This document shows positions 12,441-14,880 of a stretch of DNA of 64,000 bases, in pieces. The stretch comes from Segetibacter sp. (lineage in GTDB: Bacteria > Bacteroidota > Bacteroidia > Chitinophagales > Chitinophagaceae). Numbering within the stretch: the stretch's first letter is position 1; each line of letters starts with the position of its first letter. Both the position numbers and the translations under genes were made by a program. Location of the stretch: positions 409 to 64,408 of the forward strand of contig JAYTDC010000068.1 of assembly GCA_043736115.1 (NCBI GenBank). Reading direction: 5' to 3'. The notes beneath the pieces are model-generated. The model did no database searches. It worked only from the letters and a program-made list of their open reading frames with translations, and was not told the origin of the DNA.

Positions 12441-12857
12441 ATGACAAACAGAACTTTTACCATGATTAAGCCCGATGCCACAGGAAAAGGGTACACCGGA
12501 GCTATATTAGACCAAATTATTAAAGCCGGATTTTCCATAAAAGCAATGAAATGGACAAGGCTTAGCAAAGAAAAAGCAGGTGAATTTTACGCAGTTCATA
12601 AGGAAAGACCTTTTTACGGTGAATTAGTTGAGTTTATGAGTAGTGGAAATATTGTTGCTGCCATTCTGGAAAAAGAAAATGCAGTAGCAGAATTTCGTAC
12701 ACTAATTGGTGCTACCAACCCTGCACAGGCCGACGAAGGAACAATCCGTAAAAACTTTGCAGCTTCAATTGGCGAAAATGCAGTACATGGCAGCGATAGC
12801 GACGAAAATGCTGAAATAGAAGGTAATTTCTTCTTTAGCGCTTTGGAGAAATTTTAA
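12441..12857 (+). CDS. ndk: Nucleoside-diphosphate kinase
   Basis: [30 protein letters not shown]; ATG at 12441 preferred over the upstream 12420 start. Confidence 0.97.
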
Positions 12858-12930
12858 TAAAAATTGCTTTCTAATGAACATCATAGTACCATAAGAAACA
12901 CAGCTTTCGAGAAATAATAATTGCTGGAAA

Positions 12931-13168
12931 AATAAAAAATGCCTTGATCTAAGGCATTTTTTATGGAATCAAACACTGCTTTGAGAAAATTTATCGTATT
13001 TACGCTGTTTACTAACTGTTCAATATTGGGATAGTGAGAACTATGATTTTTAAAAGAAAGATTATCAGATCTTAAATAATTAAACAAGTGTTGAAAATCC
13101 AAATAACTTCAATAAAAAATGCCCTAAACAAGGGCATTTTTTATTGAATCAAACACTGCTATGAGAAA
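12931..13168. repeat. Two ~58-nt direct repeats (12931-12988, 13111-13168), 180 nt apart, each with an A/T-flanked hairpin
   Basis: AATAAAAAATGCC(T/C)T-N5-A(A/G)GGCATTTTTTAT(G/T)GAATCAAACACTGCT(T/A)TGAGAAA in both copies. Confidence 0.9.
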
Positions 13169-13360
13169 TATTACATTCAATTAAACGGTTAAAATTTTAC
13201 AATATTGCATAAAGCTAAAGTTCGGCCTAATATTTTATATATACCAATAATTTTCTTTCAGGATTTAGAGTACTCATAATTAAACCAATAAATCTGCGTT
13301 TATTATTTCATGAGTGCAAATGAAATAATCAACCCTTTATTTATCAAATCCATAATCGCC

Positions 13361-13471
13361 ATGAACTTTTCAAACTTGAGTATTCTTGATATTACCAGCC
13401 TTATTGTTGTGATTGCATTAGCAATTTTGCTTTTTATGTTGAACAAAAGAAAAGGTGTACAAATTGATTAA
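13361..13471 (+). CDS. Small single-pass membrane protein, 36 aa (not in the supplied ORF track)
   Basis: Translated by hand: MNFSNLSILDITSLIVVIALAILLFMLNKRKGVQID*; hydrophobic helix followed by KRK. Confidence 0.5.
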   Translation: MNFSNLSILDITSLIVVIALAILLFMLNKRKGVQID

Positions 13472-13551: not shown

Positions 13552-14880
13552 TCAGGCTGAAAGCAACTTCATCAAAATTTTTAACCGCTTTACTGCATAT
13601 TTTATTAAAGACAATTCAGTTGTATTGTTATGTTGCGGGGCAATGTTATGTTGCAGGGCAATGTTATGTTGCAGGGCAATGTTATGTTGATTGTACCAAA
13701 CAGCAGCAGCATCTTCATCGGTGAAGATAACACTACTCTCAACTTCATTTTCATTATCAATAATAGTGTGAATTGGATTGTTATTTTTAATTGATATTTC
13801 ACATAGCCTTTCTTTTATTTTTTCCAAATCAGAGGAATAATGAGGATAGTCTTTTTGTAATTCTGTTATTATCGTAAGCACAAAATATTTGTTGCTAACC
13901 ATAATTTGTTCATTACTATGAAAGATTTTTATGAACTTTTCTACAAATTGTATAATTGGATCCTTTGCATACTCTGCTACAAAATGATCCTCTGTTTGTC
14001 CATCATTATTTAGGCTGATAAAAGAAAATTGAAATGGAATATGCCTGTACGGCCAATGACCATCATATTCAGGAATCGCTACTCTGTAAGTACCTATGTG
14101 TAAAAATTTTATCGGTCTTGTTGTAAAAATAATTTTACCATTATCAACTTCAGGTTTTGGATTATTTGGAAGGTTGATTTGAAACATAGGATCTTCATGA
14201 TGACAAAAACCATAATAATCACAAGTATAGGGAATGTTACATTGCGAGCCGATTTCAATGTTTGGCATTTGCTTTTGCATAGCTAGCAACTTAAGTTCAG
14301 CAGTTCTTGTTGCAATGAATGGTTGCATTACAATAACCTGTTCTTTAACCGAATGCTTGATAAACAATTGCTTTAACTGCAAATCACCTGAACGTACATA
14401 CCCTGTATTTATGTGTACAAGAAAAATATCTTCTAACTCCAAACCTGCATTTGTTATAACAAAGTATTGTAGTGCTGCATCCTGTATGAACTGTTCTTTT
14501 AGGCCTGTACTACTCTTTACCTCATAAGCATACCATTTACCTCTGTGCTTCAGCAAAATATCAACGGCACACAAAACCCCTTCGTATTGAAAGGCCGCTT
14601 CAAAAATTATTGTATGCCCTTCGGCTATAAGCCTGGCTGTATCTCTAACGGATTCGCGGTAGTGAAATACATCTGTGGGGCTAGCATCTGCCCCGCTACC
14701 AAAGAGTTTGCGTGCAAGCAATCCAACATCAGTTCCCTGCATAAGTATGCGCTGCTGCTGGGCAGTCGGTTCATCTCTAAGTTTATAATGATTTTTGTAA
14801 AGCCACAAAGACTTGACACACTGACAACCCCTTACAAATGTGGATTTGGAAAGAATATGGCGCGGAGGCAGTGCTGACAA
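13552..14880 (-). CDS. DUF2779-family protein (PD-(D/E)XK nuclease-like N-terminus, atypical C-terminus)
   Basis: LSKSTF.RG.QC.KSLWL; VDIL......W.AYEVKSST; C..PY.C.YY.FC; P.Y.G.WPY..IPFQFS; TTG start. Confidence 0.8.
   Translation of the reverse strand: MSALPPRHILSKSTFVRGCQCVKSLWLYKNHYKLRDEPTAQQQRILMQGTDVGLLARKLFGSGADASPTDVFHYRESVRDTARLIAEGHTIIFEAAFQYEGVLCAVDILLKHRGKWYAYEVKSSTGLKEQFIQDAALQYFVITNAGLELEDIFLVHINTGYVRSGDLQLKQLFIKHSVKEQVIVMQPFIATRTAELKLLAMQKQMPNIEIGSQCNIPYTCDYYGFCHHEDPMFQINLPNNPKPEVDNGKIIFTTRPIKFLHIGTYRVAIPEYDGHWPYRHIPFQFSFISLNNDGQTEDHFVAEYAKDPIIQFVEKFIKIFHSNEQIMVSNKYFVLTIITELQKDYPHYSSDLEKIKERLCEISIKNNNPIHTIIDNENEVESSVIFTDEDAAAVWYNQHNIALQHNIALQHNIAPQHNNTTELSLIKYAVKRLKILMKLLSA
13625..13689. 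repeat. 18-nt tandem repeat (about 3.6 copies) inside the DUF2779 CDS
   Basis: atgttatgttgcagggca units, encoding QHNIAL-QHNIAL-QHNIAP-QHN on the minus strand. Confidence 0.92.

Follow-up and report, generated by a model that had tools for sequence, protein, structure and literature searches.

Tandem repeat units behind ndk in Segetibacter as candidate genes for minus-strand small RNAs

Anatomy of the locus

The DNA studied here was a 64-kb window (the whole stretch that was analyzed), which corresponds to contig C68 of a 4.6-Mb metagenome-assembled genome (MAG) of Segetibacter, made up of 191 contigs, derived from soil and labelled G000. Downstream of the gene ndk this window carries a repeated unit, in two intact copies named unit A and unit B, which are considered below as putative small RNA (sRNA) genes. 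A repeat search of the window detected a direct repeat of 63 nucleotides (nt) at 12931-12993 and 13111-13173, with a spacing of 180 and 86% identity; hence the sibling repeats with a covarying hairpin at 12931 and 13111, noticed in an initial annotation of this DNA, were real. The region from ndk to the end of unit B contains the following features:

12441..12857, plus strand: ndk, open reading frame (ORF) for a nucleoside-diphosphate kinase of 138 amino acids (aa), PF00334.
12853..12925, strand-neutral: copy 0, a decayed and truncated third unit located directly after the ndk stop; includes the motif GCT[AT]T.?GAGAAA at 12903.
12932..12964, strand-neutral: unit A hairpin, a 14-bp perfect stem ATAAAAAATGCCTT / AAGGCATTTTTTAT with the loop GATCT, A6 on one side and T6 on the other.
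12966..12988, minus strand: unit A box, 23 nt, plus-strand sequence GAATCAAACACTGCTTTGAGAAA; proposed seed UUUCUCAAAGCAGUGUUUGAUUC on the minus strand.
12989..13028, minus strand: unit A spacer, 32 nt, 43% identity to the other copies, with the palindrome CAATATTG (13021-13028) at its end.
13108..13148, strand-neutral: unit B hairpin, an 18-bp perfect stem with the loop AAACA and A6/T6; also found in the terminator scan.
13146..13168, minus strand: unit B box, 23 nt, plus-strand sequence GAATCAAACACTGCTATGAGAAA; the same in the sister species G014 and G042.
13169..13207, minus strand: unit B spacer, 31 nt, 63% identity to its orthologs, ending in CAATATTG (13200-13207).

Both hairpins were perfect (12932-12945/12951-12964 in unit A and 13108-13125/13131-13148 in unit B), the A6/T6 tracts included, and their stems differed by one compensatory pair, GCCTT/AAGGC against GCCCT/AGGGC, with unlike loops. 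One box, GAATCAAACACTGCTWTGAGAAA, of the form GAATCAAACACTGCT(T/A)TGAGAAA, followed each hairpin; its versions in units A and B are distinguished by the W position and by ATGG versus ATTG. With up to three mismatches allowed, the whole genome contained only these two copies of the box, where none was expected by chance. The palindrome CAATATTG was located 32 nt past the box in unit A and 31 nt past it in unit B. Furthermore, the core GCT[AT]T.?GAGAAA was found at all four of the positions initially listed for it (12840, 12903, 12978 and 13158), which make up 4 of its 21 occurrences in the genome when both strands are counted. Read on the minus strand, each unit presented a conserved sequence followed by a U-tailed hairpin, as had been described, the conserved sequence being 23 nt long and not about 25. 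Only 10-117 nt of non-coding DNA separated the copies. Since the sequence from ndk to 13560 was identical in two more independent metagenome assemblies (ENA ERZ28573537 and ERZ27314275), the locus was not an assembly artefact. The sample behind SRR20217193 has an identical locus as well.

The hairpin of unit A looks like a bidirectional intrinsic terminator and would be the first intact terminator 3' of ndk. Copy 0, in front of it, carried AATAAAAATTGC... at the place of the hairpin, no longer able to pair, and AAACACAGCTTTCGAGAAA at the place of the box, and it lacked the part with the spacer and CAATATTG. Its end-to-end alignment to units A and B scored above 2000 of 2000 shuffles, and its local alignment reached p of about 0.004. 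The decay of a copy that holds only the hairpin and box part agrees with the need for a complete unit, and is consistent with a functional entity of about 100 nt. A second, decayed unit was also searched for in G014 and G042, and nothing significant was found there.

Distribution, selection and origin of the unit

From the four intact copies a covariance model (R1) was built, with which 30 genus genomes and 301 family genomes were scanned. Matches above 100 bits were obtained at the loci of G000, G014 and G042 only, the remaining ones being terminator-like hairpins of about 40 bits, none of which adjoined ndk. The unit was thus conserved beyond G000 in these two sister Segetibacter species, with a single copy in each at the same place, in the gene order ndk, unit, 36-aa peptide gene and then DUF2779 on the minus strand. 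Box scans of public collections yielded one extra match among genomes, at an ORF start in a Saprospiraceae MAG (about one being expected by chance), and one among metagenomes, within a coding gene; both are only chance.

Unit B was 86-87% identical to the units of G014 and G042 over the unit, and unit A was 73-74% identical to all of these. These identities make unit B the ortholog of the sister species' single copy and place unit A outside all of them, as an outgroup. Under the best explanation, unit A would be a paralog that remains intact and either is older or has evolved faster, and copy 0 would be dead and truncated. Within the genomes searched, the unit is clade-restricted and tandemly amplified in G000.

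The ndk genes of the three species were 92-97% identical and differed at 15-30% of their four-fold degenerate sites. When unit B was compared with the units of G014 and G042, no substitution was found in 53 positions comprising hairpin arms, A/T tracts and box, and the hairpin arms of both sister species showed no difference from those of unit B. The neutral probability of zero changes in these 53 positions was 2e-4 to 8e-9. Between species the loop was variable, the spacer was 63-77% identical and the sequences flanking the unit could not be aligned. The paralog repeated this pattern: unit A had changed in 4 of 66 constrained positions, two of which were the compensatory stem pair, versus 21 of 35 in loop and spacer (Fisher p=5e-9). 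Its hairpin had stayed perfect owing to the compensated change, its box was kept apart from two changes, and both CAATATTG and the 32-nt spacing had been retained. In the alignment of the four intact copies, the compensatory pair was C-G in three sequences and U-A in one, the distance from box to CAATATTG was always 31-32 nt, and conservation ended sharply at CAATATTG.

These comparisons showed purifying selection on the hairpin, the box, the spacing and CAATATTG, as judged from the substitution pattern. Because the same features were preserved between species and between paralogs, the unit is functional and self-contained. Moreover, the hairpin belongs to the unit and does not merely serve as the ndk terminator, since the stem of unit B is perfect though the terminator of unit A separates it from ndk.

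The region behind ndk was also compared outside this clade. In the other 25 Segetibacter species, ndk was followed by an ordinary G+C-rich terminator and unrelated genes. In lineages with NDK 95-96% identical and with common upstream FKBP and NrnA-like genes, synteny was lost from the first base past the ndk stop. At the loci L096, L097, L100 and L104, a topoisomerase, a CxxCxxCC protein, or DUF2442/DUF4160 and Phd/YoeB toxin-antitoxin modules were found downstream of ndk, each with its own terminator. In these comparisons the end of ndk is where synteny breaks, and the first element behind this breakpoint in this clade is the unit. The repeats had also been suggested to be scars of repeated integration at the ndk end. 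The synteny break did fall exactly at the ndk stop; an integration-scar function was not upheld, as nothing lay between the repeats, no other copy existed in the genome and the copies were under purifying selection. Likewise, att repeats of a mobile element were rejected, with no integrase or island between the copies and no inserted genes flanked by them.

The last codons of ndk, GCT TTG GAG AAA, are similar to the 3' half of the box, and overlapping partial duplications were observed between 12840 and 12965. These duplications and the clustering of the motif at this place, the last ndk codons included, suggest that unequal crossing-over on GCTWT(N)GAGAAA microhomology may have made the array.

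A candidate minus-strand small RNA and its alternatives

A terminator with an invariant stretch beside it and a motif at a fixed distance reads as the promoter region, seed and terminator of a minus-strand sRNA gene. We tentatively propose that each unit may be such a gene with its own promoter; from the arrangement of these elements we infer that the unit is transcribed, on which strand and from which promoter, and that its RNA acts by base pairing. The RNA would be roughly 55-90 nt long, non-coding and convergent to ndk. Its promoter region would consist of the palindrome CAATATTG and the 31-32-nt spacer, and its seed would be the invariant 23-nt box (UUUCUCAWAGCAGUGUUUGAUUC) in single-stranded form. 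Both this sRNA and ndk would end at the A6-stem-T6 hairpin, serving as a bidirectional intrinsic terminator. Base pairing would be the way in which the RNA acts on its targets. The units most likely represent a new, clade-restricted candidate sRNA family matched by no described family. Of the pair of sibling sRNAs convergent to ndk that the initial annotation had envisaged, the sibling copies and the anatomy were kept and still give the best-fitting reading, and the mechanisms offered with it (pairing with ndk, antitoxin, integration scars) were given up.

Several observations fit this proposal. The fixed spacing from box to CAATATTG and the sharp edge of conservation are as expected of promoter geometry. 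Both hairpins had the features of a bidirectional terminator: their stems measured 14 and 18 bp, each loop was 5 nt long, and T6 was present on the plus strand and, from A6, on the minus strand as well. A perfect A6 upstream of the terminator stem was found in 45% of the convergent-gene terminators of this genome versus 13% of the co-directional ones, which gives a likelihood ratio of about 3.5 and favours use of the hairpin on both strands. No conserved minus-strand reading frame was found when the copies were compared. Accessibility of the box in minus-strand folds was mixed: it was unpaired in G014 and inside a helix in G042, and in units A and B its CAGUGUU was paired with AAUAUUG of CAATATTG. 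This second helix, AAUAUUG/CAGUGUU, appeared in the consensus, where all its positions are invariant, and was missing from some single-sequence folds.

For the promoter, a matrix was derived from 20 tRNA promoters of this genome, which follow the Bacteroidota consensus TTTG-N18-22-TAnnTTTGCAnCC. In G014 the palindrome, as read on the minus strand (TAATATTG), equals the -7 box of a tRNA-Leu promoter of G000, and the plus-strand reading loses the G. No intergenic enrichment of CAATATTG was detected in the genome, 41 of its 321 occurrences (13%) being intergenic versus 17% of the genome. Non-canonical promoters have been described for a minority of Bacteroides sRNAs, e.g., PM2 (PMC7366714). As a separate observation, the tRNA promoters of G000 shared an extended consensus, an A-rich stretch, TTTG, N18-22 and TAnnTTTGCA(C/G)(C/T)CC, which is usable for annotating strong promoters in this MAG.

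A number of results weigh against the proposed sRNA gene. With the tRNA-derived matrix, no site of the unit was in the top 0.5% on either strand, and no convincing sigma-A promoter was found. The best conserved promoter candidate, TAAATTTT, abuts the box on the minus strand and matches the -7 box in 5 of 6 positions, with the terminal G absent and no -33 TTG at 17-23 nt. An Rfam scan (E<=10) gave a best score of 24 bits versus a gathering threshold of 43, with E of about 2, and all of its matches were on the hairpin. The covariation comprises a single compensatory pair in four intact copies from three closely related species and has little power, as R-scape needs far more than four sequences. 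The seed did not pair significantly with the mRNA of ndk or of the peptide, and the genome-wide duplex prediction for start regions stayed within the range of shuffled seeds and was not above internal coding sequence. Finally, when the box is read on the plus strand, an ATG within it starts 16-codon frames in G014 (MRKIYHYYNVENLPIL) and G042 (MRKIYLSYNDEIFSIL), both reading MRKIY...(S/P)IL, and in unit A, where this ATG has become TTG, the change coincides with a new in-frame ATG six codons upstream, at 12963, the ORF there being MESNTALRKFIVFTLFTNCSILG.

The plus-strand frames lead to an unlikely alternative, namely that the hairpin is the ndk terminator and the box the start region of a tiny ORF or leader on ndk read-through RNA. 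The frames of G014 and G042 are equal in length and end just past CAATATT; at this AT-richness, the chance of an open frame of 16 codons is about 0.25, and the codon differences between them are 7 non-synonymous and 2 synonymous, the peptide not being under purifying selection. The coincidence of start codons in unit A would occur a few times in a thousand by a rough, post-hoc estimate, and the box resembles the start regions of real genes, such as MRKIYLV... on contig C41 and MRKLLL... on C98. In contrast, in unit B, the ortholog and the best conserved copy, the frame from the ATG at 13161 stops at codon 8, leaving 7 codons, and a spacing of 31 in place of 32 puts its CAATATTG out of frame. 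This explanation also lacks a conserved promoter upstream of the hairpin, and leaves a perfect second terminator, that of unit B, behind the first one unexplained. A leader peptide or upstream ORF common to all functional copies was rejected, the frame being cut to 7 codons in unit B.

The searches for targets of the minus-strand RNA covered the neighbouring mRNAs and, by exact match and by duplex prediction, the whole genome; no conserved target sites were found in them. The initial annotation had proposed RNAs partly complementary to the 3' end of ndk. The best site for the G000 seed was indeed in the last codons of ndk (-12.7 kcal/mol); shuffled seeds did equally well, so that the pairing was no better than that of shuffled seeds (p=0.69; p=0.97 for unit B). 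In the sister species, where ndk ends in GCGTTGGAGAGG or GCTTTGGAGAGG (GCG/GCT TTG GAG AGG), the best predicted site moved elsewhere. Cis-antisense control of ndk was hence discarded, its pairing being neither significant nor conserved and a terminator lying between the unit and ndk. An excess of pairing with start regions of MRK... proteins, seen against a reversed-seed control, vanished versus shuffled seeds and internal coding sequence. A further candidate was a 17-nt exact identity to the unit A box (GAATCAAACACTGCTTT) at 40025-40041 of contig C24, on the opposite strand of a glycosyltransferase coding sequence (codons KAVFDS), where about 0.01 was expected by chance; this site would pair with a plus-strand RNA. 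Since a synonymous change has degraded this match in G014 and G042 lacks it, it was treated as a coincidence.

Beyond the unit, the small membrane peptide and the Cas4-like nuclease named in the initial annotation were both recognized:

13361..13471, plus strand: ORF for a 36-aa membrane peptide (MNFSNLSILDITSLIVVIALAILLFMLNKRKGVQID), outside the unit.
13552..14880, minus strand: gene for a DUF2779 protein (Cas4-like PD-(D/E)XK), PF11074, E=9e-17.

Neither Pfam nor NCBIfam gave a match for the 36-aa peptide, no homolog of it was found in 300 family genomes, and a longer 53-aa ORF from 13310 was not conserved. Peptide and DUF2779 genes form a conserved tail-to-tail pair, which in a fourth species, G044, is located elsewhere (L077, 1498-1644 for the peptide, 41% identical, and 183-1487) with no unit there. 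About 100 nt upstream of the peptide gene lies a conserved leader of its own; between this leader and the unit are 55-235 nt of DNA that is not conserved. An antitoxin role against this peptide, also suggested initially, was not borne out, with pairing at p=0.09-0.9, sites that differed in each genome and the pair present in G044 without the unit. A type I toxin-antitoxin system with the 36-aa peptide was therefore rejected for want of conserved mRNA pairing and of co-inheritance with the unit.

The block conserved upstream of the peptide gene (13265-13320, GGATTTAGAGTACTCATAATTAAACCAATAAATCTGCG...) is probably the promoter or leader of the peptide mRNA. It contains a hairpin, GTACTCAT...ATGAGTGC, which has a G-U pair on the plus strand only and is a perfect 9-bp stem in G014. 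Additionally, the DUF2779 gene carried at 13626-13689 (minus strand) an in-frame 18-nt tandem repeat, TGTTATGTTGC(A/G)GGGCAA, encoding HNIALQ repeats near the C-terminus, with three copies in G000 and ERZ28573537, two in ERZ27314275 and none in G014. This difference in copy number between the ERZ assemblies lies 500 nt from their identical stretch.

It is also conceivable, if improbable, that the unit is the processed 3' end (box and terminator) of a long minus-strand transcript, coming from DUF2779 or from an antisense promoter in the peptide leader. A conserved box and terminator with a variable upstream part is the pattern of sRNAs derived from 3' untranslated regions, and one FopS member is 3'-derived (PMC11697453). 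Read-through into unit B on the minus strand could come from the DUF2779 gene, and by eye the hairpins after DUF2779 in G014 and G042 have no minus-strand U-tract. Against this source, in G000 a reasonable terminator stands right after DUF2779 (13562-13537). The antisense source would be a promoter-like site in G000, GGATTTGAT-N18-TTCATTTGCACTCA at about 13310-13352 (about 13324), which ranked at the 99.997th percentile of the matrix scan and points leftward to unit B, antisense to the peptide leader. However, this site was not conserved in G014 or G042, and a processed 3' end leaves unexplained both the fixed spacing of CAATATTG and an intact unit A behind the terminator of unit B.

A role without any RNA function beyond termination is likewise doubtful. 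The box and CAATATTG could be DNA sites of a regulator or of recombination, or the array could be a by-product of microhomology duplication at a hot spot behind ndk. The exact end of synteny at the ndk stop, in lineages with such similar NDK, speaks for a hot spot, and the motif that also ends ndk, with 4 of its 21 genomic occurrences here, is a possible seed for unequal crossing-over. Duplication would account for the origin of the array, not for its maintenance, as the selection pattern is that of constraint, and no integrase or island was found between the copies. As to DNA sites, CAATATTG is palindromic but not enriched in intergenic regions, and the box, which is not palindromic, has no copy elsewhere.

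A combination of these elements appears highly improbable. It would be a sense/antisense module in which a tiny plus-strand ORF, its start codon moved in frame in paralog A, is fully overlapped by a minus-strand RNA ending at a common terminator, either as an Ibs/Sib-like type I module or as a translational decoy, amplified by unequal crossing-over on the ndk-end microhomology. To our knowledge, no Ibs/Sib-like tandem type I modules have been described in Chitinophagaceae.

Significance and relation to known systems

We know of very few regulatory RNAs in Bacteroidota outside gut Bacteroides, and of none in soil Chitinophagaceae. In a phylum poor in sRNAs, the locus is a cleanly delimited sRNA candidate with a selection signature. 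The natural experiments it offers, an intact paralog, a dead truncated copy and single-copy sister species, point to the hairpin, the 23-nt box, the fixed spacing and CAATATTG as the parts that count. The possible birth and amplification of such genes can be followed here at a synteny breakpoint behind a housekeeping gene. At present, the unit stands as an ordinary lineage-specific sRNA candidate, a modest finding and not a surprising one.

The type I toxin-antitoxin loci ibs/sib, ldr/rdl and zor/orz are intergenic tandem repeats that combine a small RNA with a tiny ORF on the opposite strand. The Segetibacter units resemble them in being tandem and intergenic, in having an opposite-strand mini-ORF and in the small hydrophobic peptide gene nearby. 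They differ in that the mini-ORF is neither conserved nor hydrophobic in G014 and G042, no pairing with the peptide mRNA was found and the peptide travels with DUF2779. With bidirectional intrinsic terminators, the units share a palindromic A6-stem-T6 at the place where ndk must terminate. An ordinary terminator, in contrast, has no invariant 23-nt box or fixed-distance palindrome beside it and no intact second copy behind another, all of which the units have.

Within the phylum, the FopS sRNAs of Bacteroides thetaiotaomicron consist of a conserved single-stranded stretch with a Rho-independent terminator after it, are about 65-70 nt long and occur in multiple copies (PMC11697453). The units resemble sRNAs of the FopS/GibS type in phylum, in the design of a box followed by a terminator and in having multicopy or paralogous genes (PMC11697453, PMC7366714). 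Unlike the Segetibacter units, which are tandem, had no canonical promoter that could be found and are present in three species only, the FopS genes lie dispersed and carry canonical sigma-ABfr promoters. The targets of FopS, susC start regions, are established; the searches for targets of the units found none, and no match between the two was obtained by sequence or covariance model.

Tandem sibling sRNAs are known in Proteobacteria, where the pairs OmrA/OmrB and PrrF1/PrrF2 are Hfq-dependent, experimentally verified and controlled by known regulators. Units A and B, here candidates by sequence, share with these pairs their arrangement as adjacent paralogs with common seed and terminator segments and a divergent remainder.

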